Origin: Actinomycetota bacterium | GTDB taxonomy: Bacteria > Actinomycetota > Thermoleophilia > RBG-16-64-13 | Assembly (NCBI GenBank): GCA_018830645.1 | Contig: JAHJSA010000023.1 | Coordinates: 7,482-71,481 of the forward strand | Length of the DNA: 64,000 nucleotides | Reading direction: 5' to 3' | Shown: positions 20,056 through 60,139 of the stretch, piece after piece | Layout: every line of letters starts with the position of its first letter | Numbering within the stretch: position 1 is the stretch's first letter | The notes under the pieces: generated by a model | What the model was told of the DNA's origin: nothing | Database searches by the model: none | What the model saw: the letters and a program-made list of their open reading frames with translations, nothing else | Position numbers and translations under genes: made by a program

Positions 20056-20295
20056 ATCACTGAGTCCTGCAGTGCGAAGCGAGATCGGAGGCTTCTAGGA
20101 CATCGGGCCAACTCTACGTGGTCACGTGTAGCTGCCGTTTAGCCTCTTGTATGAAGTTTTCGGATGGGTTGTACGCCTTGTGTACAGGAATGCGAATGGC
20201 GCGCCCGGGAAACGACACCGAGCGCGCCATTCGACGCTCGCGCTGCGACGGCCGGCCCCGGCTGGCGAGCCCGGGGCGCGAACCGCTGCTCGGCC

Positions 20296-21627: not shown

Positions 21628-21831
21628 GAACTGACCTTCCTGGTGAGTTGTTGGTGCTGCCTACCGGGAAGGGTACCTGCCATTGGCCATAGGAACAACA
21701 CCAAGAGGGCCAACTTTCGACCCAAATCTATTAGCCATTTGGACAAGTGGCAGCGAACGGCTGTGATCGAGCGGTGCTGAGATCGACCGGGGCTCAAGCG
21801 AGCGGCGAGGCGGCACCCACGCCCGAGGTGA

Positions 21832-22707: not shown

Positions 22708-22717
22708 TCGGCTCTCC

Positions 22718-24244: not shown

Positions 24245-24253
24245 GGCAGACCT

Positions 24254-34158: not shown

Positions 34159-35639
34159 CAGTTTCCTCCTTGGTTCCGGGCCGGACGGCCCAGGTGTTTC
34201 GCGATGACCGCCTCAGCTTCCGGGGGCAACGGCGCTACAGAGTGCTTGGCGAGGATCCTTCGGGCAACGGCGAGCGCCCGAGCGTGGGCGTCCTCACCCC
34301 CGCGCTTCTCCCAGGCGCCCCGCATGCGACGGTCGATCACCTGAGCCTCCGACTGCTCGCGACGAGCCAGTTCCCGGGTATGCCTCTCGCGCAGGAAGTT
34401 GCCATCGGACCCTACTCTCAGAATGGATTCGAGACCGATGGAGGCGACATCGCTGCGGATGCCTTCGAGCACCCGCCGGTTCATGCGTGCGATCTCGTCA
34501 TCCATCACCATCTGACCGAAGTCGAAGGTCAGGCCTAATTCGAGCATCCCCATGCCATAGATCAGGTTGGCCCCTGCCAACGCTGGTAACAGACTGGTGA
34601 GGGTCTTCTCGTGGCCCGCCTGCACGTCGGGTAGTTTGCTGTCTGCCTAACCGCCGGCCACCCAGCAGGGCAGGTAGTAGAACTCACTCATCTCGGCGAC
34701 GGCGGCGGAGATGAGGGCGAGTTCGGGAGCTCCGACGGGCGCAGTGGCGTGGCGCAGGTCGAAGGTGGTGGTGCTGCTGCCGTAGATGACCGGAGCCCCG
34801 GGGCGGGTGAGTTGAGCGAGCGTAAGCGCCGAGAGCACCTCCGCGTTGTGGGTGACCATGGTGCCGGACAGGCTGATCGGACCGGTCGCCCCGGCCATGG
34901 CCATGGAGATGACGTTCGAGGCGATCCCGTGGCGCGCGCACCCCATCATGATCTCCGGGGTGGGCGAGTAGAGGGCCAGGGGACTCGTGGGGCAGGTGTC
35001 GATGGAGAATATGGGGCGCTCGCGCAAGGCTTCAGCCCCGCCGACCACCGCTGCCCCGATCTCGGCGAGTTCATCGATCTGCTCTCCGGTCTCGACGCCC
35101 GCGTGCACGTGCTTCGTGGTATTGCGGAGCGCCGCGACGAAGCCCTCCAGGTAGGCGCTCTCGGAGGGCACGTCGGTGGGCGTCACCGCCATCTCGAAGG
35201 TATCGCACATCTCGAGGGCGTCGCAGAGCCGAGCTATGCGGGCGAGATCGTCCAGGGTGGAGTCCCGGTGCTCCCCCGTCTCGAGATCGTAGACTTTGGT
35301 GCCCTCACCGAAGTTGGTGTAGCCCACCGAACGGCCGCCCATGAGGTAGTCGCGCTCGCCATCCCGCGAGGCCAGGAGGATCGTGCCCGGAGCCGACTCC
35401 AGTGCCTCTTCAACCACGTTCCGGGGGAAGCGGACAATCCGCGTGTGGGTGTCCACGACGCACCCTGCCCCGTCGAGGACATCGAGCGCCTCGTCCACCG
35501 GCACCTTCACACCGGCCGTCTCGAGAACGACCAGGGTGGCCTCATGGATCGCTTCCCGACCCGCGGCGCCCAACACATCGAAGCTGAGCCGCGGTACGCC
35601 CGCTCGCTCCTCATCCCTCAGCTTCTCTCTCCACCCCAT
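34158..35639 (-). CDS. mttB: Trimethylamine:corrinoid methyltransferase MttB, pyrrolysine-containing (in-frame UAG at 34647..34649)
   Basis: Track ORFs 34647..35687 and 34158..34625 share a frame across a single TAG: ...[51 protein letters not shown]; ~493 aa from ATG 35639 (RBS AAGGAAGG), Pyl at ~331 as in MttB. Confidence 0.9.
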
Positions 35640-35644
35640 ATGCC

Positions 35645-36169
35645 TCAGGCCTTCCTTTCCAGAGCGGGATCTTCGGGGACTTCCCACATATAGCTGAACT
35701 TCTCGTTCCCCAGGATGGTGAACACCTCGGTTGAGAGAATGCTCCCGCCCGGCGCGAGCGGGCCGCCGAGGAACTCAAGGAGCTCCTCGCTTCCTCGGAA
35801 CACGGCTTCCACCAGGAGGTTATAACGACCGGTGCAGTACCCCACCCAGCACACCCGGTTGAGTGCGGCGAAGGCGCGGGCGACCTCCCGCAGATCGCCT
35901 GCGACAACATTCACGCCGATCATGACGTTGATGGGATAGCCGGTGGCCGCAGGGTCCAGCAAACCCACGATCTGCATCACTCCGGTTTCGTGCAACCGTT
36001 CGATGCGTTTGCGCACCGTGGGCACGGACACGCCGGTGGCCCGCGCGATCTCCGCGTTCGGCAGGCGTCCGTCGCTCTGCAGGAGGGCGAGGATCTTGCG
36101 GTCCAGTGAATCAAGGTGCTCCGGACGCGGCTCGCTCCTCCGATGCTCGTCCACCAGACCCCCAGTCAA
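35645..36169 (-). CDS. Lrp/AsnC family transcriptional regulator
   Basis: N-terminal HTH (LDRKILALLQSDGRLPNAEIARATGVSVPTVRKRIERL) and C-terminal RAM ligand-binding domain; directly upstream of mttB. Confidence 0.8.
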   Translation of the reverse strand: MTGGLVDEHRRSEPRPEHLDSLDRKILALLQSDGRLPNAEIARATGVSVPTVRKRIERLHETGVMQIVGLLDPAATGYPINVMIGVNVVAGDLREVARAFAALNRVCWVGYCTGRYNLLVEAVFRGSEELLEFLGGPLAPGGSILSTEVFTILGNEKFSYMWEVPEDPALERKA

Positions 36170-44602: not shown

Positions 44603-46063
44603 CTACTCCTCCGCCGAGACGATGATCTTCTTCATCGCCTCGTGGACCGCGGGATCGAGCGGCATCGCCTCGTGGGTCTTCAGCAGATCGGCGGCCATAG
44701 CCTCGGCACGCGTCGCCACGTCGGTCCCACCTTTCTTCGTCCATGCTCCCCGCGTACGCCTGTCGAAGAGCTTCACCTTCGACTGCTCCGAGGGCATGTA
44801 CTTCAGCGTGTGCTTCTCCTTCAGGAAGTTCTTGCCCGAACCGATCTTGTGGATCACCTCGGTGCCGATGGTGTCGTTGTCCACGGGTGAACCGCGCACC
44901 ACGCGCTTGACCATCGAGGCGATCTCGTTGTCGATCAGGAGCTGTCCGTAGGAGAACGTGACACCCAGTTCGAGCATCCCCATACCGTATATCAGGTTGG
45001 ACCCTGCCAACGCTGGTAGCAGACTGGTGATGGTTTTCTCGTGCCCGGCCTGAGCGTCGATCACTTTGCTATCCGCCTAACCACCGGCAACGTAGCTCGG
45101 CAGATTGTAGTAGTTGGACAGTTCGGCCACCGCCGCGGAGATCATGCCCAGCTCTGGCGCCCCTACGGGGGCCGTGGCGTAGGTCATGTCGAACATGGTG
45201 GTGGAGCTTCCGTACATGGCGGGAGCGCCCTTGCTGGTGAGCTGCGCCAGCGTGAGGCCGGCCAGCACCTCTGCGTTGTGGGTGACCAGCGTGCCCGATA
45301 CCGACACCGGGCTCGATGCGCCCGACATGGCCATGCTGAGCACGTTGATGGGGCATCCCCAGCGCGCGCTCTCCATGATGACCTCGCAGGTCACCGTGTG
45401 GAGCATCAGGGGGCTGGTGGGGCACACCAGGGTGGAGACCAGCGGCCTCTCCCGGAGCTCCCTGTCGCCGCCCGCGATGAGCGCGGCCATCTCGAACATC
45501 TTGCGGGCGTTGGCACCCGAAGAGACGTCGATGTGATGCACGTGCTTACTCGTGTTCAGGAACGCGGCTTCGAGCATGTGCAGGTCGTATGAGGCGTCGG
45601 GCATGTCGCGAGCGACGACGGCCGTCGAGTACACGTCGACGTTCTCCATCGCGTCGCAGGCGAGCGCCGTCCTTCCCATGTCTTCCTTTGTGGTCTCGTT
45701 CACTTCGCCCGTCTCGGGATCGGTGACCATGATCCCGCAGCCGAAGTTGGTGTAGCCCACGTGCTTGCCGCCCATCCAGTAGTCGTACCTGGGATCGCGC
45801 GCCGCGAGCAGGATGCTGCTCGGGCACGACGCCAGGGCTTCCTCGACCACGTAGGCCGGGAACTTCACGATCTTGGTGGCACGATCGACGATGCAGCCGC
45901 CCTCTTCGAGAACGTCCACTGCTTCCTCGAGATGAACCTCGACCCCGGTCAGCCGGAGGACTTCCAGCGTGGCGTCGTGGATGGCGTCGAGCTGACTGCT
46001 CGAGTACATCCTGAGACCCCAGCCTTGGTATTCCTCCGTACTGGCTCTCGGTCCTCGGATCAT
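44603..46063 (-). CDS. mttB: Trimethylamine:corrinoid methyltransferase MttB (second copy), pyrrolysine-containing (in-frame UAG at 45077..45079)
   Basis: Track ORFs 45077..46165 and 44603..45064 are in frame across one TAG: ...[54 protein letters not shown]; paralogous to the 34158..35639 copy. Confidence 0.9.
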
Positions 46064-46106
46064 GTGCGCACCTCCTTTCTCTCGCTCGTAGTGACAGGCC
46101 GTCTCA

Positions 46107-46772
46107 CTAGGAGACGGCTTCCTTGGCCTTCGCCACCGTCTCGGTGGCGCTCTCGGCGTAGACATCCGCGCCGATCTTGTCGGCCCAGTGCTGGGTGGCG
46201 GCGGCGCCGCCCACCATCGTCTTCACATTCCCCCTGATGCCCGCCTCGGTGAGGGCCGCCTCCAACTTGGCCTGATTCACCATGGTGGTGGTCATGAGGG
46301 CCGAGCTACCCACCAGATCGGCGTTGGTCTCCTGCGCCATGCGGACGAATTCGCCGATGGCCACGTCGCGGCCAAGGTCATGCACCTCGAACCCGGACAC
46401 GCCGAGAAGCGTGCCCACGATCGTCTTTCCGATGTCGTGCACGTCACCTTCGATCGTGCCGATGACCACCGTGCCGAGCTTCTCGACCGCCGATGCTTCG
46501 GGCAGGGCCTCTTCCAGTATTGCAAGCGCGGCCGTCATGCAGTCCGCGGCGATGATCATCTCGGGAAGGCTCATCTCTTCCGCCTCGAACATCTCCCCGG
46601 CCCGGCGCATGCCCACCGTGAACCCTTCCTGCAGGAGCCGGACTGGATCTAGACCGCTCTCCAACGCATCCTTGGCCAGCTGTACCGCACCGTCCTCATC
46701 GATGTCGAGGACGAGCTCCTGCGCCTTCTGGATGGCTTCCTCCATGCTAAGTGTCGCCATGTACCGGTTCAC
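46107..46772 (-). CDS. mttC: Corrinoid (cobalamin-binding) protein, MttC-like
   Basis: B12-binding domain with DxHxxG (GDVHDIGK) and SxL / GG motifs; N-terminal corrinoid cap helix; immediately upstream of mttB. Confidence 0.85.
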   Translation of the reverse strand: MNRYMATLSMEEAIQKAQELVLDIDEDGAVQLAKDALESGLDPVRLLQEGFTVGMRRAGEMFEAEEMSLPEMIIAADCMTAALAILEEALPEASAVEKLGTVVIGTIEGDVHDIGKTIVGTLLGVSGFEVHDLGRDVAIGEFVRMAQETNADLVGSSALMTTTMVNQAKLEAALTEAGIRGNVKTMVGGAAATQHWADKIGADVYAESATETVAKAKEAVS

Positions 46773-47315: not shown

Positions 47316-48395
47316 TTAGCTGCCCGCAGTGTCCGAGTTCTCCGATGAGCCCCCAAGATGCGAGACCGATCGGATGACCTCAAGAACATCGCGGCGCTCG
47401 GTGTACATGATCACTCCACCGGCGATGACGATCAGGCCGCCGATCAGGAAGTTCAGGTCAGGCATGGTCAAGGTGAAGATGCCCAGGAAGATTATGGCGA
47501 ACACCCCGTAGAAATCGGCGATCGCCTGCCCGCGACCCACACCGATGAGCGGGAACGACTTATACCACGATACGTAGCAGAAGCCGAATGTCAGCCCGGC
47601 CAACAGCAACCACACGAGGTTCGTGAAGTGAAGCGCATCGACGAGCATCGTGATCGCATCGCCGCCGGTGAGGATCGCCGTGACCGGCAAGATGAGAACT
47701 ACCCAATAGAGAACCTCGGCCGTGAAGCGGATCGTGAGCCCCACGTCTGGGTCTACTACATCGAGCGCCCGACCGGCGAACGCGCCTTCGATACCCCAGC
47801 CCGTCGCAGCCATGATCCCGCCCACGTAGCCGAGCCACGAGCCGGTGCCCGTACCGGTCATCTCAGCGAGGATCCCCGGTGCGTAGACGACCAGACCTCC
47901 GCCAACGATCACCAGGATGCCGAGTGCCGCCCGGGTGGTTATCTTCTCTGCATACCAGACCCGGGCCAAGCCGGCGCCCACAATCGGATAGAGCAGGGCG
48001 GCAACAGCCGCGAAGACACCGCCAACGTAGCCGATGGCAAGAAAGCTACCGAAGATCGCCATGGGACCGCCGAAGACCGCTCCTGCGAAGAACCACTTCG
48101 AGACCTTGCGCATCTGCCGAATAGTCCTACCGTATTCCCGCATCTTGCCCAACACCGCAACCCAGACGTACATCGCGAGCAGCACAGCGATGGCGTTGAG
48201 CGCGGTGATAACCGCTGCCGCCATCAGGAAGTCCCTGGTTGTATCGGCGATGGCGTTGAACGGCGCTTCGTACCAGATCGCGGTGCCGGGCACGTACCAG
48301 GCACCCCACAGCACAGCGCACCACAGCGCCCACACGAACCCCCACCGCACCGACCGCTCGGTGTGATCCCTTCGTGCCTTCGTCAGATCCGACAT
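47316..48395 (-). CDS. Integral membrane protein (~10 TM), putative permease, possibly a methylamine permease analogue
   Basis: 359 aa, highly hydrophobic with repeated Gly-rich TM segments; inserted between pylC and the mttC-mttB pair; family not assignable from sequence alone. Confidence 0.55.
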   Translation of the reverse strand: MSDLTKARRDHTERSVRWGFVWALWCAVLWGAWYVPGTAIWYEAPFNAIADTTRDFLMAAAVITALNAIAVLLAMYVWVAVLGKMREYGRTIRQMRKVSKWFFAGAVFGGPMAIFGSFLAIGYVGGVFAAVAALLYPIVGAGLARVWYAEKITTRAALGILVIVGGGLVVYAPGILAEMTGTGTGSWLGYVGGIMAATGWGIEGAFAGRALDVVDPDVGLTIRFTAEVLYWVVLILPVTAILTGGDAITMLVDALHFTNLVWLLLAGLTFGFCYVSWYKSFPLIGVGRGQAIADFYGVFAIIFLGIFTLTMPDLNFLIGGLIVIAGGVIMYTERRDVLEVIRSVSHLGGSSENSDTAGS

Positions 48396-48412
48396 CTATC
48401 GACCCCCTTTCG

Positions 48413-48434
48413 TGCGATGCCTAGCAGCATCGCA
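48413..48434 (-). terminator. Perfect 8-bp GC-rich hairpin (TGCGATGC-n6-GCATCGCA) ~18 nt upstream of the membrane-protein start and downstream of pylC
   Basis: Inverted repeat read directly; no U-tract, so a terminator or RNA-stability/attenuator role cannot be distinguished. Confidence 0.3.
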
Positions 48435-48716
48435 GCCTCTAGAAACCCACCGACTCCAGATCCTCAGTGCCGATCCCCCCTCTCTTCGAGCCTCGGTGTA
48501 CTTGTATGGACAGGTACGCGAGAATGTCCGCGCCCCGGACGACCGCCTCATGATACCTGGACGCACCAACAATACGCAACAGACTCGCACCCATCCTGAA
48601 AGCCGCAGTGACCCCTGTCTCGTGCCTAGACAGGCTTGAGACACCACGGCCGCGACCCCCTGAGCAATCCGCTCGTGTGGGTGGCGCACCGAGCGCGGCA
48701 ACAGCCCGGGGGTGGG

Positions 48717-49904
48717 TCAACGAGCACCTCCCCCTATCGACCCAGTCCGTACGCTCACCGGGTCAGGCGTCGCCGACAACCCGGAGTCGCGCGCGAGCCG
48801 GCGAACGGCCTCCTCCGCGCGGGCACGTGCGTCTACCGCGTCGACGCCTACGCAGATCATGGTGGCCGACCAGGTCTCTCGCCCCTCGGCACGGTCCGTG
48901 AGCACCTCGTCCGCGCCGAAGGCGTCTTCCAGGAGCCGCAGCGGCCCCGCCGTGCTCATCACGTGTTCCCCGAGAACCTCCAGGCTGCCCATGGAGGCGT
49001 GCACGTGTTGGTAGCAGACTCCACGACCGCCCGGGGGCAGTGAGCCGGGGAGACCGGCGCCACGTGCGATATCCGCGACCAACGCCACCACATTGAGTCC
49101 CGTGGAGTGCAGTACCGCGGTGGGCGTCTGGCTGGGTAGCCGCGCGTCGATCTCGATCAGCCGCGGAACGTCGCCGTCCAACATGACCTCGACGTCCATG
49201 AGACCCACGAGCCCCATGCGTTCGGCAAGACGCACCCCGGCAGCGGACATGGCCTCGAGAGACCCTCCGGCCGCGGTCACCGGAGCGACCACGCGCTTGC
49301 AGTCGTACACGTGGTCGAACTCGAGCAACGTGGGCACCAGAGGCAGCGCCCCATCCGGCGTCCCGATCACCTCCAACGACAGCGAAGGCCCGTCGACGTA
49401 CTGCTGCACGACGACTTCATGACCCGCGGTCTCGAGCCTCTCTCGAGCCGCTTCGAGGTCGCTCTCGGTCCAGACGACGCTCACCCCCTCGCTGCCGCTC
49501 GACCCGCTCGGCTTGACCACCGCGGGGAAGCCGCACTCGGGCCACGGTAGGGGCCGCGGAACATCCAGTTCGGCGAAGAGACGGTCGGAACGAAGCTTCG
49601 AGCAGGAGAGCTCGTAGGAAGGAAGGTGGAAGGCCAGAGGTACACCCCAGGACGGCACGACTTCGCTCAGCCACCGCAGGGTCTTCAGGTCTTCGCAGGC
49701 GGGCAGGATCACGTCGCACGCTCCGAGCACCACCCGCGCTCGTTTCACGTCGGCCGTGACGTCGAACACGTGGCTCTCTGTTGCCAATCCCGAGGCGGGC
49801 GTGGCGGGCGCCCTATCGACGAGGACAACCTCGAATCCAGCCTTGATGCCCAAATAGACCGCCTCGGTCCCTTGTAGACGTCCTCCCACGACGCCCAGGC
49901 GCAT
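48717..49904 (-). CDS. pylC: Pyrrolysine biosynthesis ATP-grasp ligase PylC (3-methylornithine--L-lysine ligase)
   Basis: Start VVGGRLQGTEAVYLGIKAGFEVVLVDR... and the IEIDARLPSQTPT motif match PylC; ATG overlaps the pylB TGA. Confidence 0.9.
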   Translation of the reverse strand: MRLGVVGGRLQGTEAVYLGIKAGFEVVLVDRAPATPASGLATESHVFDVTADVKRARVVLGACDVILPACEDLKTLRWLSEVVPSWGVPLAFHLPSYELSCSKLRSDRLFAELDVPRPLPWPECGFPAVVKPSGSSGSEGVSVVWTESDLEAARERLETAGHEVVVQQYVDGPSLSLEVIGTPDGALPLVPTLLEFDHVYDCKRVVAPVTAAGGSLEAMSAAGVRLAERMGLVGLMDVEVMLDGDVPRLIEIDARLPSQTPTAVLHSTGLNVVALVADIARGAGLPGSLPPGGRGVCYQHVHASMGSLEVLGEHVMSTAGPLRLLEDAFGADEVLTDRAEGRETWSATMICVGVDAVDARARAEEAVRRLARDSGLSATPDPVSVRTGSIGGGAR

Positions 49905-51001
49905 CACCACTGGGCCTGCGCCCTCAACCCCGGAGCCTGCGTCCCGGCGAGCCAGCCTTCGTACTCCGGCAAGGAGGCCACCTTCAACCCGAGGGGAGCG
50001 AGATGCCGCTCCACTCCGGCCACGGTACGGAAGCCCTCATCGATGTCGAGCGTTGACTGTGAGACTCCGGCCAGCCCGCTTGCGGGAGGGATGATGGATG
50101 TGACGACGTTGGCGCCCGCACGCAGGCGGGCCTCCAGACCCCGAAGGCCGTCGATGTCGAGAGAGGCTGGGATCAGGCGATCGGGCATGGTGAGCCGCAT
50201 GGTGGCTAAGGTGACCATCTCGGCCAGCAGGGTGGGCGTGTCGAGGCCGCCCATAGGAGTGCCCTTCTGGGGGACGAAGCCCATCACCCGCACCTGCTGC
50301 ACACCCTGCGCCCTCATGGTGACGAGGGAGCGCGCCCGGTCGGCGGCCGTCTCGCCCACACCCAGAAGGATGCCGTCTTCAGCGTGTAGTCCAGCGCCCA
50401 GGGCCCGGCTCCTCGCGCCGACACGCGCCGCGAAATCCTGCCCCGGCCGAAGCTTGCGGAACAACTGCGGTGAGTGGGTCTCCTGGTAGCAGGCATACCA
50501 GTCGGCCCCCGCCTCGGCGAGCTGCCGCAGCACGGCATCCGGCACCACGCCCGGAGACACCATCACCGGCACCCCTGCCGCTCCTCGGACGTCCGCCACG
50601 AGTTCCACCAGATGGTCGAACCGGCCGGCGTCGTGGATCTCCGGGTCCTCCCCCAGGGTCAGATCCACGAGGTGCACGCCCGAGCCGGCCAAGCCGCAGG
50701 CTATCTCGACCACCTCAGCCGCGGTCTTGCGGTACCGGGGACTCGCGTCGTTGCCCTTGCGGTAGAAGCAGAACGTACAGCGATTGCGGCAATACGTCGA
50801 GAAGTAGACGAAACCGTATAGAAAGATCTTGCGCCCGAAGTAGCGCTCCCTCAGTCTCTGCGCGGTGTCGAAGATGAGAGCGGCCTCATCCGGCTCCTGC
50901 ACTTCGAGCAGCGTCTCGATCTCGGGCACCCGGAGGCGTTCCCCCGCGAGCGCGCGCTCGACGATCGCTTCCACTTCCCGGCGTCGTGGCCGTCCGGTCA
51001 C
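49904..51001 (-). CDS. pylB: Pyrrolysine biosynthesis radical SAM enzyme PylB (3-methylornithine synthase)
   Basis: FVYFSTYCRNRCTFCFY radical SAM cluster motif; RLIPASLDIDGL...AGANVVTSIIPP matches PylB; GTG start at 51001 (residue 179 of the track ORF) preceded by a G-rich RBS. Confidence 0.9.
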   Translation of the reverse strand: MTGRPRRREVEAIVERALAGERLRVPEIETLLEVQEPDEAALIFDTAQRLRERYFGRKIFLYGFVYFSTYCRNRCTFCFYRKGNDASPRYRKTAAEVVEIACGLAGSGVHLVDLTLGEDPEIHDAGRFDHLVELVADVRGAAGVPVMVSPGVVPDAVLRQLAEAGADWYACYQETHSPQLFRKLRPGQDFAARVGARSRALGAGLHAEDGILLGVGETAADRARSLVTMRAQGVQQVRVMGFVPQKGTPMGGLDTPTLLAEMVTLATMRLTMPDRLIPASLDIDGLRGLEARLRAGANVVTSIIPPASGLAGVSQSTLDIDEGFRTVAGVERHLAPLGLKVASLPEYEGWLAGTQAPGLRAQAQW

Positions 51002-51012
51002 CTGCGAACCCC

Positions 51013-51900
51013 CTATTCCTCCGCGACCGGATGCGATCCCGGCCGGGTGCCTTGTACGTTGAGGCGCGCCCCGTCGAGGTACACGAGACTCCTCCCTACC
51101 GGGTGGATACGAGACCCACCCGTCTGCATCATGGCTAGACGCTCGAGGCCGAACCCCCACCCGGCCCACGGACCGTTGACGCCCCACTGCTCGTCGAGTG
51201 GGTGCGGTCCGACGACGCCTGAGGCCACCTCGATGCCGCGCACCTCCACATCGAACGTCGCGCCATATACGCCGGAATCGGTCTCGACGATCTTGTATTG
51301 CAGGCCCAGGGGCCTCATGGCGACATCGGCCAGCATCCGCAGGCGATCGGCGGGGTCGCCGCTCGGCTCGAACTCCACAAGGTTGAGCATGGTGAACTCC
51401 GAGAGGTGGTTCGAGCCCTTCGACTCCTTGCGGAAACAGGGTCCCACTTCGAAGATGCTCACGGGGGGCGGCCATAGCCGTTGGAGGTGACTGAGCAGGT
51501 AGTAGAGGTTCGGTGCCAGCATCGGGCGCAGGCATCGGTCGGTGTCGACCCAGTACACCTGGCGCCAGAGCGGGTGTACTTCACCGATCCCCATCTTCGC
51601 CAGGGCGCCCTTGCTCATCATGAGCGGCGTGGCCACCTCGACGAAACCATCCGCCACCAGCGCCGCGACCAAGACCGACTCCACCGTGCGCAGCACCGGG
51701 CGTCGCCTCTCGGTGCGCAGAGAGTCGAGCCGATCGACGTTCGCCTGGCTGAGTTCCCGATGGTTCCCCTCGTAGCGGGCGTCGCGCTCCTCAGCCGAGT
51801 CGAACGTGTCGGCCAGCGCGGCATCGTCAAGCCCGATCTCGGCTAAGCGCTGCCTCTGCTGCGGCGAGAATCCGAGTGCGATGTCTCCCTGGCCTATCAC
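51013..51900 (-). CDS. pylS: Pyrrolysyl-tRNA synthetase, C-terminal catalytic subunit (PylSc)
   Basis: Class II aaRS motifs conserved with PylS: CLRPMLAPNLY, FEVGPCFRKES, EFTMLNL, GPHPLDEQWG, GFGLERL; GTG start overlaps the pylSn TGA (GTGA). Confidence 0.9.
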   Translation of the reverse strand: MIGQGDIALGFSPQQRQRLAEIGLDDAALADTFDSAEERDARYEGNHRELSQANVDRLDSLRTERRRPVLRTVESVLVAALVADGFVEVATPLMMSKGALAKMGIGEVHPLWRQVYWVDTDRCLRPMLAPNLYYLLSHLQRLWPPPVSIFEVGPCFRKESKGSNHLSEFTMLNLVEFEPSGDPADRLRMLADVAMRPLGLQYKIVETDSGVYGATFDVEVRGIEVASGVVGPHPLDEQWGVNGPWAGWGFGLERLAMMQTGGSRIHPVGRSLVYLDGARLNVQGTRPGSHPVAEE

Positions 51901-52262
51901 ACGAACGAGGTGCTCTCGAACTTCTCGAGCTTCCAGGATGGTATACGGCACCGCGGACACGGCTCGTCGTAGATCTTGTTGCGCAGATGACGGGCGACCC
52001 GACTGTTCCGGGAGTTCCGCATGCGGATGTCATGCCCGCAGTGCGTCTGCAACTCCACGAACCCGCCCCTGAGCTTCACCGAACGGACGCCATGCAACAG
52101 GCCGGTCTTCGACGGCCACAGCTTCACCTTCTCGATCACCCCGTAGGGGGCGGCATGCCGCCGCACCGTGCGCTTCTTCGCGCCGGGGATAGGAGCCAAG
52201 ACCCAGTCGGGCAGCTTCCCGCCTGTCCCAACGTCTCCGTTCGTGGAGCCGACCACGTCCAC
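51897..52262 (-). CDS. pylSn: Pyrrolysyl-tRNA synthetase N-terminal tRNA-binding domain protein (PylSn)
   Basis: 121 aa; LQTHCGHDIRMRNSRNSRVARHLRNKIYDEPCPRCRI closely parallels the Zn-binding region of the Methanosarcina PylS N-terminal domain; GTG start 45 nt downstream of pylT. Confidence 0.85.
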   Translation of the reverse strand: MDVVGSTNGDVGTGGKLPDWVLAPIPGAKKRTVRRHAAPYGVIEKVKLWPSKTGLLHGVRSVKLRGGFVELQTHCGHDIRMRNSRNSRVARHLRNKIYDEPCPRCRIPSWKLEKFESTSFV

Positions 52263-52307: not shown

Positions 52308-52379
52308 TGGAGGAGAGTCCGGGAGTCCAACCCGGCTACGAAGATTTAGAGTCTCCGCGGTCATGCCGACCAACCCTCC
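52308..52379 (-). tRNA. pylT: tRNA-Pyl (CUA anticodon) gene pylT
   Basis: Minus-strand 72-nt sequence GGAGGGTTGGTCGGCATGACCGCGGAGACTCTAAATCTTCGTAGCCGGGTTGGACTCCCGGACTCTCCTCCA folds with a 7-bp acceptor stem, single U8, a 4-bp D stem with 5-nt D loop, a 6-bp anticodon stem, loop CU-CUA-AA, a 3-nt variable loop and a 5-bp T stem. These are the hallmark atypical features of tRNA-Pyl. Confidence 0.85.
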
Positions 52380-52457
52380 TTGTTGCCGGCCGCCGGGCGG
52401 CCGGCTCGGGGTGCACCGCCCGTCTGTGGGGCGGTGCACCACTACTCGTAGGCGGTC

Positions 52458-53486
52458 TTAGACCGCCGCCTCTTCCGCGGCCTCCACCATGGCCCTCAGG
52501 TTCTCGGTCTCCGCCGAAGGCGGCACCGAGCAGCCGGGAGCGATCATGTCGTAGCCATCGGCCAGAGCCTTACGCACGTCGTTCTTCACGTCCTCGGGCG
52601 TGCCGGAGAAGAGCGTCACCACCGCGTCCACACCGCCGATCAGGGCGATGTGCCGGGGGAACCCGCGCAGCACCTCTTTGGCGGCGACGGCATCCACCGA
52701 CGGCTCCACGCTGATCGCGGTCACACCGGTCTCGGCGACCTCCGCCATGATCGGGTTGAGCTTCCCGCAGATGTGCATGATCGTGAGAACGCCGGGGAGG
52801 TTGGCGATCTGCTTCGCCTCATACGGCTGAGCGAGGTTGCGGAAGATGGGCGGGCTGATCACGTCGATCGAGGCCATCATGTCTTCGATGACGATGATGT
52901 CCGCACCCGCGTCCACAAGGGCTTTGCCCAGCATGGTGCCGGCCTGCTCGGCCACTTCCATGAGGGGCACCAGGCTCTCCGGCTTCTTGAAACTCGCCTT
53001 GAGTGCGTCGGTGATGCCGATCAGATTGGCCACGATCGAGAAGGGGCCGACGATGTTGCCCATCACCGCGACATCGTCGCCAACGGCTTCCTTCATCAGC
53101 CGCACGGCCTCGATCAATTCAGGCACGCGTCCGCGGGTGAGGAAGTCGTCGGGAAGAGCGATCTCGTCCCCGGCGTGGAAGGCGTGCACGTCGATACGCG
53201 GGATACCCTCGCGCCCGGCGTACTTGACGGTGCAGCCCAGAGCCTCGCTCTCGACGGTCTGGCAGTACGGGGCACGCACAGCGTCGAAGCCGAGTACGGA
53301 GTGGGCCGCCAGAGCCAGTTTGGCCATCGACTCGGCCTTCTGGTGGGCCTCCGGCCATTCCGCTCCACACGCGTCCATCTGCGCATAGGTCGCCGTCTGG
53401 TTGGCCGAGAAGACCGGTGGACGGTCCACGGGCAAACCGGCAAGCGCTGCTAGTACACGTTCCTTCGAAGTCATCACACCTCTCAC
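52458..53486 (-). CDS. Uroporphyrinogen decarboxylase (URO-D) family methylcorrinoid methyltransferase (MtbA/MtaA/MtqA-like)
   Basis: 342 aa URO-D fold typical of the methylcobamide:CoM / methylcorrinoid:tetrahydrofolate methyltransferases that partner with corrinoid proteins; lies between pylT and mtbB. Confidence 0.8.
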   Translation of the reverse strand: MRGVMTSKERVLAALAGLPVDRPPVFSANQTATYAQMDACGAEWPEAHQKAESMAKLALAAHSVLGFDAVRAPYCQTVESEALGCTVKYAGREGIPRIDVHAFHAGDEIALPDDFLTRGRVPELIEAVRLMKEAVGDDVAVMGNIVGPFSIVANLIGITDALKASFKKPESLVPLMEVAEQAGTMLGKALVDAGADIIVIEDMMASIDVISPPIFRNLAQPYEAKQIANLPGVLTIMHICGKLNPIMAEVAETGVTAISVEPSVDAVAAKEVLRGFPRHIALIGGVDAVVTLFSGTPEDVKNDVRKALADGYDMIAPGCSVPPSAETENLRAMVEAAEEAAV

Positions 53487-54887
53487 CTATCCCATCTTCG
53501 CTTTCAGTCTGTCCACACTGTTGATACTGATACCGAGCAATTCTGCGATACGGATCTTAGCCTCTATCCCCTTGGCGCATCCGGGCACTGAGGTGATCAC
53601 ACCTATGTCGAGGTCTTCGCGCATCTCCCGCATCACCGTGACCTCGGAGAGGTCGGCGACGCTGATCTTCAGCTTGTCGGCCACGTAGGCTTTGGCTTCC
53701 GGTAGGCGCATCCTGCGCGCGAGCTGCATCCGAGCGACCAGGTCTCCGGCCGTACGGATGCCGCCCATACCAGCGGCCACCCCGTGGGCGATGGGCATCC
53801 CGTAGGGATCGCCCACACCCACCTATAATCCGTCGACGCGGGCGATCTCGACCATCGCGACCGAGGCCCGCGAGACACTGTCGATAGGCGGGGTCTCGAA
53901 CACCGGGGAGCCACCCACCCCCATGCCCATGTTCACGTGCACCGGGATGTTGGCCACCGCGGTGACCGCCTTGACGAAGGTGACGGCGCGGGCAAGGTTC
54001 CAGGCCATCGACTTGCTGGTGTTGGTGTTCACGACAGGTCCGAAGATGTCGCCTCCGGCCTTCTCGACGAGACCAACTTGGTGGTGCGGGTAGAGCCCGG
54101 CGAGACGCGTGCCGTCGTACTCGAGCTCGCCGTGGATACCGAGTACGAACTCCCCGGCCATGCCAACCTGGATCGCAAGATTCGGGTGTTTGGCCTTCAG
54201 CTGCTCGACTGCCTGAAGCGAGGCTTTGAAGTCCGCGTCGCCCGCCGCGCCCGTCGTATCGAAGTTCACGCCGTCGGCGCCCACCTCGGCCAGCTTGCCG
54301 CAGATGTAGACGATGTCGCGGGTCGCGTGCTCGACCGCCAGTTCCTGGGCCTCACGCGCCTCCTTGATCTTGCCCATCGGCAGGAGGTCGGAGGGGTTGC
54401 CGAACGGGCCGTCGGGCGCGTAGTAGGTGCCGAGGTTCGGCATGGCTCCGTAGAAGATGGGCACGATGGTGCTGAGCAGGATGTTCTCGAGCGCCTGCTG
54501 CTCCTGGGCGATGATCGGCTTGACCGGCTTCCAGGAGTAGTCCACATGCCCGAGTTCCATGGTATCGGCCGCGAAGGCCCGCTCGTGCACCTGCACGCCC
54601 TGCAACCGGCTCAGCGGGATACCGACCCCGCTGTTGCCTTGGTCGCCGTCGAGGCGCAACGTGCCGATGTCGTGCGTGAGTACGACCTCGTTCCCCGAGT
54701 CGACGCCCACTACGCGCGCATTGCTCTTGAAGAGGTCGAGCAGGAAGTCGATCTCGTCGTCTTTGAGGGGTGGGATGCGGCCGCGATCGGCTGCGTCTGC
54801 GGAGCCGGCGATCAGATCGGCCTTCAGCTCGTCAGCCGTCATATCGATCACGTGCCCGTCCCCCATCCGGGTCGGGTACTTCGTCAT
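53487..54887 (-). CDS. mtbB: Dimethylamine:corrinoid methyltransferase MtbB (second copy), pyrrolysine-containing (in-frame UAG at 53823..53825)
   Basis: Track ORFs 53823..54887 and 53487..53822 abut in frame across TAG: ...[33 protein letters not shown]; N-terminus [24 protein letters not shown] is MtbB-like. Confidence 0.9.
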
Positions 54888-54942: not shown

Positions 54943-55590
54943 CTACCCCTGCACCAACTCGAGGGCCTTCTGCACGGCCTCCTGGGCGTTCTCGGCGTAG
55001 GCGTCGGCGCCGATCTTGTCGGCCCAATACTGAGTGACGACCGCCCCGCCCACCATGGTCTTCACCTGGTCGCGGATGCCCGCCTCCTTCAGCATCTTCT
55101 CCAAGGCCTTCTGCCCGACCATCGTCGTGGTCATGAGGGCCGAGGTACCCACGATCGCGGCCCCCGTCTCCTTGACCTTCTCGACGAACGTGTCCAGGGG
55201 GACGTCGCGGCCGAGGTCCACCACATCGAAGCCGTACACCCGCATCAGGGTCGCCACGATGCCTTTGCCGATGTCGTGCACGTCGCCCTCGATCGTGCCG
55301 ATGACGGCCGTGCCGGCCTTCTTCTCTCTCTGATCCTCGGGAAGCGACGCCTCTAGAATAGCGACGGCCGCAACCATGGCCTCAGAAGCAAGGATCACCT
55401 CCGGCAGGAACATGGTGCCCCGTTCGAAGAGGTCGCCCACGTCGCGCATGCCCGGAGTGAATCCCTCGTTGATCACCTTGAGGGGGTCGAGGCCCAGCTT
55501 CACCGCCTCAGTCGCAATCGCCTTCGCCTCGTCCTCATCGGCCGACACCACAGCCTTGGCTGCGGCTTCGAGCAATTCTTGTTCTGTCAT
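54943..55590 (-). CDS. mtbC: Corrinoid (cobalamin-binding) protein, MtbC-like
   Basis: B12-binding domain with GDVHDIGK (DxHxxG) and the corrinoid cap; upstream of mtbB. Confidence 0.85.
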   Translation of the reverse strand: MTEQELLEAAAKAVVSADEDEAKAIATEAVKLGLDPLKVINEGFTPGMRDVGDLFERGTMFLPEVILASEAMVAAVAILEASLPEDQREKKAGTAVIGTIEGDVHDIGKGIVATLMRVYGFDVVDLGRDVPLDTFVEKVKETGAAIVGTSALMTTTMVGQKALEKMLKEAGIRDQVKTMVGGAVVTQYWADKIGADAYAENAQEAVQKALELVQG

Positions 55591-55759: not shown

Positions 55760-57370
55760 TTAGAGCCAGAAGATGGCGTAGGCGGTGAATACCACCGCCA
55801 CACCTGCAGCCAGAGTCACATAGGGCAACACTCCGGCCTTGCGGGGACCGAGTTCAGTCTCGCCCGCGGGCAACAGGTCCGCCCACATGTGGTCGGGGAA
55901 CTTGCCCTTGTCGGTGATGTAGTGCCTCACGGCGAACACTGGGATGACGAGAGCGGCAGATACGAAGCCCGTGGCCAGTGTCCCGGGACCCCACACGTTG
56001 GCCCCCGCGCCCAGAAGGAACGCGTTCACGAACGCCAGTACTACACCTGCGCCCAAGAGGAAGTTGGGGGCGCGCCACGGCCGAGGTACGTGCTTGTTGT
56101 CGATGCGGTGGATCCACCCGGCGTTCAGGTTGAGGAAGTTGAAGATCAAGTAGTTCACGTTCGACACGGCAAGCACGAACAAGTAGTCCGACATCAGCAG
56201 GAGGATCAGGTTGAACGTGAGGTCGGTCCACATGGCGCGGGTGGGCGCCCCGTGAGGGTTCACGTGATCCAGGTACTTGGGCAGCCATCCGTCGACGCCA
56301 CCCTGGTAGAGGGTGCGCGAAGAACCGGCCATCGAGGTCATCACGGCCAGCAGGAGGGTGAACACGAGCATGACCACCAGGACGTTGGTGACGACAGCGC
56401 CGCCGCCGACCATACCGGCCAGGGCTTCGCCGACGCCCGCTCCGCTGGCGATACCCGGTTCGAGCATGCCCTCTGTTCCCAAGACGCCCTGGAAGGCCAC
56501 CGGCACCACGACGTACACGGCGATGCACAGGAGGCCGGAGTAGAGGATGGCGCGAGGGGTATCGCGGCCCGGGTTCTTGAACTCACTTGTGTAGCAGATG
56601 GCGGTCTCGAACGCGTAGGCCGACCAGGCCGCGATGAACAGACCGCCCATGAAGAGCGTCCACCCACCCAGATCCCACGAACCCGCGATGACGTTGCCGG
56701 CATCATCCAAGGCGAGCGGGGTGAACGGCGAGAAGTTGCTGAGTGAGACATCGCCGGTGAGCAACGGCACGACGCTCACGACGAGCAGCGGCATGAGCGC
56801 ACCCACGGCAAGTACTGTCTGGATCCGGGCGGTGCGCAGGATGCCGTGGTGCTGCATGGCGAACACCGCGAGGAGCATGGCTGCACCGATGAAGAAGGTG
56901 GCGTTCACACGGATCGACAGGTCATCCTTGAGGAAGTCGAGCGGTATCAGCGTCACCTGCCACGTGTTGATCGCGGCGTCAGGCGCAAAGAAGATCGAAA
57001 GAAGGTAGCCCGCGCCGAGACCGCAGCCGATGGCCAGCACCGGGGTCCAGGCGAGCCAGTTGCACCAGAGCGAGACCGGCGCCAAGAGCTTGCTGTAGCG
57101 CACCCAGGCCGTGGCGCCATACACAGAAGCCCCTCCCGACTTGCTGGGGAAGAGGCCGGCGATCTCGGCGTAGGTGAACGCTTGGATGAAGCCGAACAGA
57201 ACGGAGATGGTCCACACGAGCCAGGCCGGCGCCCCCACGGTCGCCGAGATGCCCCCCATGGAGAAGAGCACCAGCGCGGGCACGCCGATCGCGACCCAGA
57301 AGGCCCCCTTCCAGTCGATATCGCGCTTCAGAACACCGGCCTCGTGCGACACGTACGTTTCCGATGACAT
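55760..57370 (-). CDS. APC-superfamily permease (amino acid/polyamine/organocation), candidate methylamine transporter
   Basis: 536 aa, ~12 TM, APC-type Gly-rich helices; located between the mtbC and mtmB genes. Confidence 0.75.
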   Translation of the reverse strand: MSSETYVSHEAGVLKRDIDWKGAFWVAIGVPALVLFSMGGISATVGAPAWLVWTISVLFGFIQAFTYAEIAGLFPSKSGGASVYGATAWVRYSKLLAPVSLWCNWLAWTPVLAIGCGLGAGYLLSIFFAPDAAINTWQVTLIPLDFLKDDLSIRVNATFFIGAAMLLAVFAMQHHGILRTARIQTVLAVGALMPLLVVSVVPLLTGDVSLSNFSPFTPLALDDAGNVIAGSWDLGGWTLFMGGLFIAAWSAYAFETAICYTSEFKNPGRDTPRAILYSGLLCIAVYVVVPVAFQGVLGTEGMLEPGIASGAGVGEALAGMVGGGAVVTNVLVVMLVFTLLLAVMTSMAGSSRTLYQGGVDGWLPKYLDHVNPHGAPTRAMWTDLTFNLILLLMSDYLFVLAVSNVNYLIFNFLNLNAGWIHRIDNKHVPRPWRAPNFLLGAGVVLAFVNAFLLGAGANVWGPGTLATGFVSAALVIPVFAVRHYITDKGKFPDHMWADLLPAGETELGPRKAGVLPYVTLAAGVAVVFTAYAIFWL

Positions 57371-57453: not shown

Positions 57454-58878
57454 CTACCAGTGCTTGTAGTTGACGCCGAGATCCTGCATCGCTTTCACGG
57501 CTTCGTCGTACACGGCCAAATACTCGGCGGTGGGAACGACCTTGATCGGGTCGTAGCACTCGTCGAACGGCTGACCCGCCGGCGCCGTCTTGTAGTCTTT
57601 CTCGTAGCTGCCCACCAGAGCGTCGAGGATACGGTTGGCCTCTTCGAGCGGCATCCCGGCCACCGCGTGGGCGACCTCGCCCATGAAGCGGGCCTCGAGC
57701 CCCGTGGTCTTGTTCGTGGCCACGCCTTTGGCCGAGGCAACTCCGGAGAGTATCTCGCGACCGCTGACGGTGTCGGTGATGGACTGAGCCGCAGTCTCGA
57801 GCAGGCACATCTTCGTGCCGGGCCCCGCGACTGTGTAGTACTGGTTGCCCAACATCAGGTTCGTGTGCTCCTCGATGGCCCGTGCGCAGTGCCCGGCTAC
57901 CGCCAGCGGCTCCCTGGCCGTGGTGATGCCCCACCGCACGTGGATGGGCCCGTCGAGATGCCACGTCGCCTGCGTCATCACGAACGCGTTCAACGTGGTG
58001 GCCACGTCGACGATGGTGGTCTCTTCGAGTCCACCCGCGTACCCTCCGAAGATGGGCATCTGCTCGCACATGATGATGTTCCCGGCTAGTACGTAATGAG
58101 CGGTGAAGGTCAACGCACCTACGTCGATCTTCAGCTCATTGAGCTGGGACACTTCATGGCTGTCAGACTGCCGCATCCCCCCGGGGAAGTCGGCTGCGAT
58201 GACTCCACCGGGAGACAGGGACGTCTCATTGCCCTATAACCCCATCCCGGGCCTGCCGGCCCTTGCCTGAGCCAGGCGGACCTGGTAGGCCTCTTGCCTC
58301 ACGGCAGCAATCTCCCACGGGCTGTTCGGTGTGGGGTCGTAGCCGTTGATCGTCTGCATCACCCCGTCCACGATGGTGTCTACGATGCTTTCCTTCGCGT
58401 AGGATTCGTGGATCGGCAGGAAGAGCGGCTCGGAGCATGGAGCCCCGGTAGGCCCTCCTTGGATCACCGGCGGCCTGGTGTCCTTGTGACTGCGAGGGCT
58501 CAGGAGCCGCGAATCACGCCCCTCCCCCAGCACGCAGGACTTGGGCGCCGCTGCAATACTGGCCCACACCTCTTCTTCCGTGTACTTGATCACGCGCCCG
58601 GTATCCATGCAGTAGATACCGCACTCCACCAGCATCTCCATGCCGGCTTTGAAGAGGTTGGCTACCAGTGCGGGGTCCGTGGGGACCATGACCTTCTTGT
58701 CCATCTGGATGCCGTGCTTCTCTTTCAAACGCGAGGCCGTCTTGGGGATGATCTCGTAGTCCCACGCGTTCTCATCCACACGCTGGCCGGTCTTCGCACG
58801 GTTGAAGGCTTCGAAGACGGTGACCTTCTGCGCTAGCGCCACGTTGGCTTCCCCCCTTTCTCTCGATCGGATGTGCAT
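57454..58878 (-). CDS. mtmB: Monomethylamine:corrinoid methyltransferase MtmB, pyrrolysine-containing (in-frame UAG at 58234..58236)
   Basis: Track ORFs 58234..58878 and 57454..58176 are in frame across TAG: ...ARAGRPGMGL-TAG-GNETSLSPGGVIAADFPGGMRQSDSHEVSQLNELKID, colinear with the MtmB Pyl-202 region (AGRPGMGV-O-GPETSLS...TDSHEVSQLNELKID); ~474 aa. Confidence 0.9.
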
Positions 58879-58891
58879 TGAGTCGGCCGGT

Positions 58892-59542
58892 TCATCCGCT
58901 GACCAGTTCGATGGCCACCTTCACTGCGTCCGCGGCATTGTCGGCGTAGCCGTCGGCGCCTATCTTGTCCACCCACTCTTGGGAGACGGGGGCACCGCCG
59001 AACAGGCACTTGACGTTGTCGCGGATGCCGATCTCGATGAGGCCGTTCACGATCTCGCGCTGGGCGGGCATCGTGGTGGTCATCAAGGCCGAGCCCGTGA
59101 CGATATCGACGTTCTCCGCCTTGGCCTTCGCCACGACGTCGTCTACGGGGACATCGCGGCCCATGTCGATGACTTCGAAGCCGTTGGCGGCGAACATCGT
59201 CTTCACGATGTTCTTCCCGACGTCATGGATATCGCCCTGCACCGTGTGGCAGATCACCTTGCCTCGGCTCATGGCGCCCCGCTCGTCGGCGGTCATCCCC
59301 TCCGTCAGAATTTCCACAGCCCCTTGAAAGGCTTCCGCCGCGATAATGATCTGCGGAACGAACATCTCGCCCTCATCGAACAGGTCGCTGATGATGTTCA
59401 TGCCCTTCGAGAGTCCCTCCTGGATAGCATCCACAACCGTGATCCCGGCCGCCTTCGCCTCGTGCGCCGCCTCTGCGGCCACCTCGGGCTCGAGTTCCGA
59501 TACCCCCGAGGCCAGTTTCGCTAGGATCTCTTCTCGATTCAC
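58892..59542 (-). CDS. mtmC: Corrinoid (cobalamin-binding) protein, MtmC-like
   Basis: B12-binding domain with GDIHDVGK; first gene of the mtmCB-type unit. Confidence 0.85.
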   Translation of the reverse strand: MNREEILAKLASGVSELEPEVAAEAAHEAKAAGITVVDAIQEGLSKGMNIISDLFDEGEMFVPQIIIAAEAFQGAVEILTEGMTADERGAMSRGKVICHTVQGDIHDVGKNIVKTMFAANGFEVIDMGRDVPVDDVVAKAKAENVDIVTGSALMTTTMPAQREIVNGLIEIGIRDNVKCLFGGAPVSQEWVDKIGADGYADNAADAVKVAIELVSG

Positions 59543-60139
59543 CTACTCACCCCCTCGCTCCTAGGTCCGTTTGCCGAATACACGTTGCCGGCGACACATG
59601 ATCACTGCCGTGCACCCGACCCCGTATAGGGAGATCCCTGTCGCCGCAGGCCGACTACTGCATGCTGCGTCTCCCCCAACACACGCCCGGCGGGCCCTCT
59701 GCCACAACCCATCTAGACAGGTGCGCGCCGGGCCAAGCAGAGCTACTTTACGTACCGCGAAAGCATATGTCAAACCCCTCTGGACGAGTTCGACTGTACG
59801 GTCATACAGGGCTGGAGGCCGCCCAGACCTCGGTGCCATCCTCGCGAAGCCCCCGTCTAGACCGCTTGACAGGAATCCGCGTAGTGACTAATGTTGCGAG
59901 CGTTGAGTTGAAACCGCCGGGGGGCGGATGAGGGCGGACGCTCAGGGGGGCTCCGAAGAAGGATTCCGGCAGGGCCTGCGTATGCTCGGGGTCAAGCGGG
60001 AGCACTTCAGACCTCTCGACCGACCTCCCGTGGCAGCCAGGAGCGTGCAACTCCGGAAAGGGGGCCGACTTCGTACACCCGCGTCTCACGCGTGTACCGC
60101 TAGAACCAATACCGTAGCCACATCGAGAAAGGGGGGAAC
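59543..60139. promoter_or_regulatory. ~600-bp lower-GC divergent intergenic region between the mtmC operon start and the small-membrane-protein operon
   Basis: Longest non-coding stretch in the window and lower GC than the flanks; no ORF with coding character; must carry promoters for both divergent units. Confidence 0.4.

Follow-up and report, generated by a model that had tools for sequence, protein, structure and literature searches.

The window analysed here, a 64,000-nt stretch of contig JAHJSA010000023.1 (assembly GCA_018830645.1), carries on its minus strand mtbB2, a gene for a pyrrolysine (Pyl)-type dimethylamine:corrinoid methyltransferase. A gene for a corrinoid carrier, mtbC2, lies upstream, a gene for an MtaA-like second methyltransferase (MT2) lies downstream, and genes for Pyl decoding and synthesis follow (Table 1). 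Translation of mtbB2 gave 466 sense codons with a sole internal stop at codon 355, in the peptide context VDGL-[UAG]-VGVGDP. The product matched the TIGR02368 equivalog ([dimethylamine--corrinoid protein] Co-methyltransferase) with 662 bits, well above the cutoff of 369 and over residues 2-464 of 466, as well as Pfam Dimeth_Pyl (PF09505) end to end with 742 bits; a sequence-based search found no solved structure for any MtbB relative. Judged by profile matches and reading frame, 53487..54887 is thus a genuine pyrrolysine-containing dimethylamine methyltransferase gene. This is what a preceding sequence-only reading had proposed, placing a single in-frame UAG at 53823..53825, and both the translation and the DNA sequence bear it out; no further frame disruption, which that reading had named as grounds for doubt, was found. 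The split open reading frame (ORF) signature that it described as shared with a first copy, mtbB1, was also confirmed, with the same VDGL-[UAG]-VGVGDP motif around the TAG at 33097..33099.

The corrinoid protein claimed upstream of mtbB2 likewise held up. MtbC2 scored 259.2 bits against TIGR02370 (methyltransferase cognate corrinoid protein; cutoff 215.3), and among solved structures the trimethylamine corrinoid protein 7XCN is closest to it (E 5e-67). The cobalamin motifs DxHxxG (GDVHDIGKG), SALMTTT and VGG can all be read in its sequence.

Table 1. Coordinates of the mtbB2 locus and of related genes in the window
Feature	Position	Strand	Description
mtbB2	53487..54887	-	Pyl dimethylamine:corrinoid methyltransferase (substrate-specific methyltransferase, MT1), 466 codons; GAGGAG ribosome-binding site before ATG at 54887
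Inferred Pyl codon of mtbB2	53823..53825	-	In-frame UAG, codon 355; DNA gga tta TAG gtg ggt gtg ggc
PYLIS_2 match	53726..53825	-	Rfam RF02509, mtbB pyrrolysine insertion sequence; 100 nt starting at UAG, two hairpins
Terminal stop of mtbB2	53487..53489	-	TAG in the reading frame of the mtaA-like ATG, which follows after 12 nt (TAG GTG AGA GGT GTG ATG)
mtbC2	54943..55590	-	Corrinoid (B12) carrier of methylamine methyltransferases, upstream of mtbB2; Pfam B12-binding_2 and B12-binding
mtaA-like MT2	52458..53474	-	Uroporphyrinogen decarboxylase (UroD)-fold methylcobamide methyltransferase, MtaA/CmuA family; downstream of mtbB2
pylT	52308..52379	-	tRNA-Pyl, anticodon CUA (ARAGORN)
pylSn	51897..52262	-	Small subunit of split bacterial-type pyrrolysyl-tRNA synthetase; TIGR03912 101.5 bits (cutoff 51)
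pylSc	51013..51960	-	Catalytic subunit of pyrrolysyl-tRNA synthetase; TIGR02367 283.6 bits (cutoff 178)
pylB	49904..51004 (start approximate)	-	Methylornithine synthase (radical SAM); TIGR03910 440 bits (cutoff 348)
pylC	48717..49910	-	3-methylornithine--lysine ligase; TIGR03909 311.7 bits (cutoff 248)
mtmC-like	58892..59542	-	Corrinoid protein, probable first gene of transcription unit; TIGR02370 236.6 bits
mtmB	57454..58842	-	Monomethylamine methyltransferase; in-frame UAG 58234..58236; Pfam MtmB 719 bits; Rfam PYLIS_1 58137..58236
APC-family permease	55760..57370	-	Between mtmB and mtbC2; Pfam AA_permease_2; NF053774 873 bits (cutoff 690)
mtbB1 (copy 1)	32752..34158	-	UAG 33097..33099; TIGR02368 588.7 bits; PYLIS_2 33000..33099
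Pyl mttB	34158..35687		Above TIGR02369 cutoff
Pyl mttB	44603..46063		Above TIGR02369 cutoff, 708 bits

The internal UAG is conserved and followed by selected coding sequence

We aligned ~75 MtbB genes, from 64 loci of reference genomes (cited below by their L numbers) plus second copies within them, sampled from Actinomycetota, Desulfobacterota, Firmicutes, Methanomassiliicoccales, Methanimicrococcus, Methanosarcinaceae, Hadarchaeota, Bathyarchaeia and others. The UAG column is common to these homologues from bacteria and archaea, a pattern that is far beyond chance. Nearly all of the best 120 MtbB homologues in the database are called as fragments of 352-357 amino acids (aa) that stop at this column. 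The 111 codons after the UAG are under purifying selection: in comparisons of mtbB2 with six Actinomycetota relatives, dN/dS was 0.07-0.15 for this part and 0.03-0.16 for the 354 codons before it. Relative to L004, the post-UAG part differs by 16 synonymous and four non-synonymous changes (dN/dS 0.07).

The PYLIS_2 match that starts at the UAG scored 92 bits (gathering threshold 36) across model positions 1-100, with both predicted hairpins largely satisfied, and the region has a folding z-score of -4.16. Since the model also captures conserved coding sequence, which the match may partly or largely reflect, we take it as supporting context only, with a putative role in UAG decoding. The conserved column, the selection on the downstream codons, the PYLIS_2 match, the adjacent decoding genes and the independent assembly of an identical sequence in three samples collectively argue that the UAG is read through.

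Two full-length MtbB homologues were looked at individually. The protein P0025 is listed with Q at the Pyl column, but its DNA does not translate so under the standard code, and we therefore regard the Q as a gene-caller artefact. P0081, encoded at L072 6001..7401 (GCA_016278615.1, JADQBM010000005.1), is 52% identical and has Leu at the Pyl column (IDGLLIGTGDP), confirmed from its DNA; it has no neighbouring corrinoid protein and is a genuine non-Pyl relative of MtbB.

An MtaA-type methyltransferase gene lies between mtbB2 and pylT

The ORF downstream of mtbB2 spans 52458..53486 if its GTG is used, though the ATG at 53474 is the likelier start and is also the one used in the public gene call. 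The sequence-only reading had described the product as a URO-D methyltransferase, and the domain and family searches place it in the MtaA/CmuA family, with 322.2 bits for NF004889 (cutoff 244), 286.4 bits for TIGR01463 (cutoff 235.4) and 244 bits for Pfam URO-D. URO-D was the only Pfam family matched, and no pterin-binding fold of the AcsE/MetH type was present. A true uroporphyrinogen decarboxylase (HemE), raised earlier as the competing identity, is ruled out by a score of 38.2 bits against the hemE model, for which the cutoff is 303.

The protein is nearer to MtaA than to MtbA. Its best match in the PDB is Methanosarcina mazei MtaA (4AY7, E 8e-75; compare UroD 1J93, E 4e-8), to which it is 39.6% identical over the full length by BLASTP. 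The HICG and APGC sequences of the two proteins align exactly; going by MtaA biochemistry, we take these to hold the zinc ligands (H-x-C ... C) that activate the thiol acceptor. The closest homologue from a cultured organism is a Desulfofundulus kuznetsovii protein annotated as MtaA/CmuA family (57% identity), and a protein in NCBI from 'Actinobacteria bacterium' is 100% identical. The earlier label 'MtbA/MtqA-like' needs qualifying: the protein is closer to MtaA and falls under the MtbA cutoff, and 'MtqA-like' does not suit a comparison with the MtqA of Eubacterium limosum. A 2026 paper groups that MtqA, together with MtvA and the acetogen/bacterial MtaA group, with AcsE/MetH and treats the UroD superfamily separately (PMC13222342). 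No other MT2 candidate was found in the window.

Gene order is consistent with a single transcription unit

Eleven minus-strand genes run from 59542 to 48717 in the order mtmC, mtmB, APC permease, mtbC2, mtbB2, mtaA-like, pylT, pylSn, pylSc, pylB and pylC, with intergenic gaps, measured from mtbC2 to pylSn, of 12-78 nt. A sigma-70-like promoter-like site is located at 59773..59745, ~200 nt upstream of mtmC. It is reasonable to suppose that mtmC to pylC form one transcription unit, and given the common strand and the short gaps, the recoding machinery and the UAG genes that depend on it are probably expressed together. The public gene calls divide mtmB at its UAG.

The order mtbC-mtbB-mtaA-like-pylSn-pylSc-pylB-pylC is kept in four Actinomycetota metagenome-assembled genomes (MAGs), L004, L005, L006 and L008, with MT2 identities of 71-92%. 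The closest reference genome, L004 ('Actinomycetes bacterium LH_M24'), has an MtbB that is 98% identical and the same gene order; the next-closest MtbB proteins, at 79-84%, come from Gaiellales, Thermoleophilia and other Actinomycetota MAGs. The host is an uncultured Actinomycetota bacterium of high GC content that has relatives among Thermoleophilia/Gaiellales MAGs.

Several additional features were noted in and around these genes. Between the mtaA-like stop and pylT (52380..52457, minus strand), there are two GC-rich hairpins without a T-tract, GGTGCACCGCCC...GGGCGGTGCACC and GCCGGCCGCCCGGCGGCCGGC, which could serve for processing or attenuation in front of the tRNA. NF053774, matched by the APC permease, is the equivalog for the Methylocella-type trimethylamine N-oxide (TMAO) permease, which hints that the permease could import TMAO or methylamines. 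A gene for an EamA/DMT-family membrane protein is found at 47316..48395 (minus strand). Homologues that are 41-63% identical recur at bacterial and archaeal mtbB/mttB clusters (L010, L013, L016, L018-L021, L024, L028, L030 and others), making this protein a candidate methylamine transporter on the basis of gene neighbourhood.

The window encodes a broad methylamine repertoire

The sequence-only reading had pointed to two diverged mtbB paralogues and an expanded methylamine repertoire, and the expansion turned out larger than claimed: the window has five Pyl genes, two mtbB, two mttB and one mtmB. The pairwise alignment and phylogeny that had been suggested for the two copies were carried out. 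MtbB1 and MtbB2 are 64% identical, with dS near 1, and in a rough neighbour-joining tree mtbB2 groups with Actinomycetota sequences, in a clade that neighbours one of Desulfobacula/Desulfobacterota, with mtbB1 on a separate deep branch. This identity and the separate branches indicate, on sequence comparison, that the two are old paralogues or separate acquisitions and not a recent duplication. The mtbB1 gene is flanked by the Pyl mttB at 34158..35687 and a non-Pyl MttB homologue at 31215..32708 and comes with neither a corrinoid protein nor an MT2. The full MT1-carrier-MT2 arrangement is found at mtbB2. The ORF at 44603..46165 was also considered as the first mtbB copy and was rejected as a Pyl mttB on its TIGR02369 score.

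A third, large Thermoleophilia MtbB clade, ~52% identical and distant in the tree (L045-L065, from Thermoleophilia/Actinomycetes MAGs), also conserves the UAG. Loci of this clade have up to six MttB-family paralogues per 20 kb and no pyl genes in the fetched flanks.

Besides MtbC2 and the mtmC-like protein, the window encodes a third corrinoid protein, and the 8.5 kb beyond its right edge contain another Pyl mttB as well as another non-Pyl MttB. Non-Pyl homologues of the MttB superfamily stand beside Pyl genes both in the window (31215..32708, minus strand) and in the stretch beyond its right edge (L068, 13121..14608). The homologue scored 350 bits against TIGR02369, under the cutoff of 525, and has MGGMACGS at the Pyl position; such proteins presumably act on quaternary amines. 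Farther away on the minus strand, 18448..25495 and 25492..26844 encode GATase_2, Glu_synthase with an N-terminal 4Fe-4S domain, GXGXG, glutamine synthetase and a further GltB-like protein. This block could be either an archaeal-type split glutamate synthase with glutamine synthetase or a look-alike of the N-methylglutamate pathway. It is adjoined by a gene for a fused HdrB/HdrC-like protein (HdrB model 238 bits, under the cutoff of 345).

A proposed pathway and the points against it

In light of these assignments, we propose the following scheme. MtbB2 would be translated through its internal UAG as pyrrolysine by means of the adjacent tRNA-Pyl and the split PylSn/PylSc synthetase. Its Pyl residue would activate dimethylamine, and the methyl group would be moved onto the Co(I) corrinoid of MtbC2. 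From methyl-Co(III)-MtbC2, the MtaA-type UroD-fold enzyme would then move the methyl group to a cellular acceptor. In Methanosarcina, MtbA acts for all methylamine branches (PMC8318568), and the lone MT2 here probably does likewise for mono-, di- and trimethylamine, given that the window has three corrinoid proteins and five Pyl methyltransferase genes but just this one MT2. The gene identities, the UAG position, the selection on the codons after it, the conserved order and the presence of pylT, pylS, pylB and pylC are observed directly, and the activities, the operon structure and the acceptor are deduced from them by analogy. On balance, we consider it very probable that the locus encodes a Pyl-dependent dimethylamine methyl-transfer system with the read-through, carrier and MT2 as proposed.

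A number of observations weigh against this interpretation. MtbC2 is below the archaeal MtbC equivalog cutoff (247 versus 350) and is therefore a family member and not a demonstrated orthologue; the same applies to MT2, which is under the equivalog cutoffs of both MtaA (321 versus 400) and MtbA (247 versus 600). The acceptor cannot be read from homology, because the characterised bacterial methylcorrinoid:tetrahydrofolate (THF) MT2 enzymes are of the AcsE/MetH type and not of the UroD superfamily (PMC13222342). No RamA/RACo-type corrinoid activase was detected among the scanned ORFs of the window or in the gene calls of the 8.5 kb beyond its right end. A tblastn search of the window with PylD queries from L007 and L008 gave nothing significant; pylD is absent both here and from the locus of the closest relative, which leaves the Pyl synthesis genes of the window at pylB and pylC. 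The dimethylamine-to-acceptor unit that the sequence-only reading called complete is therefore so with respect to MT1, carrier and MT2, and is not with respect to an activase in the window and an adjacent pylD. Finally, TAG is an ordinary stop here: it ends 20 of the 45 credible genes of the window (~44%; TGA 20, TAA 5), including polA, the S1 protein gene, glnA, carB, pylSc and four of the five Pyl genes, and there is no systematic nearby back-up stop. This frequency requires that UAG decoding be partial or regulated, limited by expression or context.

Alternative readings

The methyl acceptor of MT2 would be either THF, the customary assumption in the bacterial literature, or a thiol, for example coenzyme M (CoM). 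The conservation of the zinc-ligand positions leaves room for a thiol. Among the window ORFs scanned, no match was found to families for CoM biosynthesis or for the use of methyl-CoM. The second methyltransferase of bacterial trimethylamine/methylamine systems has been called uncharacterised (PMC8318568). MT2 might be that enzyme and, as its archaeal relatives do, pass the methyl group to a thiol (CoM or another low-molecular-weight thiol) rather than to THF, a suggestion that we put forward as tentative and, by our own estimate, rather unlikely. If true, these Actinomycetota would form a methyl-thioether intermediate in a setting other than methanogenesis.

A different role for the UroD-fold protein, as an MT1 for another donor (methoxylated aromatics, methylated thiols or halomethanes) that is adjacent to mtbB2 by chance, is improbable. 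The characterised bacterial members of the UroD superfamily (OdmB, VdmB, MtvB, CdmB and CmuA) are indeed MT1 enzymes, with the MT2 enzymes being AcsE/MetH-like (PMC13222342), and MtaA-like proteins have no role assigned outside methanogens (PMC10418091). However, the protein passes the cutoffs of the CoM-methyltransferase subfamilies NF004889 and TIGR01463 and resembles M. mazei MtaA over its full length, whereas the MtaA-like protein CLJU_RS09375 is only ~17% identical to the O-demethylases OdmB and VdmB (PMC10418091). Moreover, its gene begins 12 nt after mtbB2, the adjacency is kept in the four Actinomycetota MAGs, and the window offers no alternative MT2 candidate. We thus retain the assignment as an MT2.

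The missing pylD could mean that the Pyl system is decaying, so that no pyrrolysine is made and the UAG genes are relics read as truncated proteins. In the relatives L006-L008, pylD follows pylC; L004 instead has an SSS-type transporter there, and pylD was found neither at the L004 locus nor in the 8.5 kb beyond the right end of the window. A PylD profile search of the protein database returned many PylD proteins, none of which, among the best 120, was traceable to the source contig. In the interval between pylC and the EamA gene (48396..48716), ~30 nt after pylC, we detected a weak match to the PylD C-terminus (48624..48686, minus strand; E 0.52, 10/21 identities, H..GVA kept) that looks like a deletion scar or C-terminal remnant. 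Against decay, the mtbB genes of the window and L004 differ by 93 synonymous and only 14 non-synonymous changes with the UAG kept, the frames of all five Pyl genes of the window are intact, and the ~72 kb inspected are part of a 218 kb metagenome contig, which itself covers just a portion of the genome, such that pylD may simply lie elsewhere. That it does so is what we expect, since both genomes lack an adjacent pylD and keep their UAG genes under strong purifying selection. Decay of the system is accordingly very improbable, and a functional Pyl system is the better account of the locus.

The terminal stop of mtbB2 raises another question. As it is in frame with the mtaA-like ATG, the next stop comes only at the end of mtaA, and with a UAG-suppressing tRNA encoded 80 nt downstream, read-through by design would give an 809-residue MtbB-MtaA (MT1-MT2) fusion. 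L004 is arranged alike. The junction is, however, limited to these two closely related genomes and is not seen in L005-L009: L005 and L006 end mtbB with TGA, and in L007-L010 mtbB ends in TAG with unrelated extensions. In-frame spacing is a one-in-three chance event, the 12 nt carry the mtaA ribosome-binding site, and the many other TAG-ended genes show no pattern of meaningful extensions. We find a designed fusion hardly credible, and the in-frame junction is most likely coincidental.

That the internal TAG is instead a sequencing or assembly error, a pseudogene lesion or the boundary between two polypeptides of 354 and 111 aa has practically no probability left: the ORF list does give a 111-aa GTG-started ORF at 53487..53822, right after the TAG, and public gene callers divide mtbB2, yet that GTG lacks a preceding ribosome-binding site, Pyl-decoding genes adjoin mtbB2, pyrrolysine is established as the catalytic residue in MtmB and MttB, and the three independent assemblies, the TAG column kept in two domains and the purifying selection rule out such explanations.

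Comparison with known systems

Bacterial pyrrolysine, split PylS, Pyl mttB/mtbB/mtmB clusters and Pyl mtbB in Actinobacteriota are already known. The locus is thus largely expected, and its proteins have already been deposited under automatic names. Few bacterial phyla are known to encode pyrrolysine, and the locus supplies a well-resolved example from an actinobacterium; it also illustrates that genes for mono-, di- and trimethylamine demethylation can be packed with the recoding machinery in an apparent single transcription unit.

The archaeal counterpart is the MtbB1/MtbC/MtbA system of Methanosarcina with pylTSBCD. In common are a Pyl MtbB with UAG in the same column and a PYLIS_2 match after it, a cognate corrinoid protein, a UroD-fold MT2 in which the his-cys-cys positions (which we take to be zinc ligands) align, and, as proposed for this locus, one MT2 shared by the methylamine branches. 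Unlike Methanosarcina, the host is bacterial, the synthetase is split into PylSn and PylSc, MT2 is nearer to MtaA and under both equivalog cutoffs, TAG is common as a stop, the cluster lacks pylD and a Ram activase, and there is no evidence of CoM or methanogenesis.

Among bacteria, the pyl clusters of Desulfitobacterium hafniense, Acetohalobium arabaticum, marine Deltaproteobacteria and the Olavius symbiont similarly have pyl genes beside mttB/mtbB/mtmB and TIGR02370 corrinoid proteins. They share the split pylSn/pylSc, as do all bacterial cases surveyed (PMC9630628), and do not avoid TAG genome-wide. The Deltaproteobacteria studied have no identified MtbA homologue, and the MT2 proposed for them is a protein of the MetH family (PMC8318568). 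The present locus, from another phylum, has the gene for an MtaA-clade enzyme immediately between mtbB and pylT, and its cluster lacks pylD.

Closer in lineage, Actinobacteriota MAGs from Stordalen Mire were reported to express Pyl-encoding mttB and mtbB (PMC10805028), and two Actinobacteria genomes were reported to encode PylRS (PMC9630628). Our locus shares their phylum-level lineage and the Pyl-type mtbB/mttB and appears to be a further instance. To our knowledge, neither report discusses an MT2 gene next to mtbB, a missing pylD or a terminal TAG of the kind described here.

D. kuznetsovii, the species with the 57% identical MT2 homologue, offers a further comparison: two MtaA proteins, of which the homologue may be one, as well as the MtaB and MtaC of one operon are methanol-induced there and were proposed to form methyl-THF (PMC5770442). 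The donor system in that organism is methanol MtaB/MtaC and not a Pyl methylamine enzyme, and the acceptor is hypothesised.

Relative to all of these systems, the most useful feature of the locus is its MT2, a single MtaA-type gene tightly and conservedly linked to mtbB and pylT and hence a concrete candidate for assay. The locus also provides a natural setting in which to ask how UAG suppression is kept in check when TAG closes ~44% of a cell's genes.

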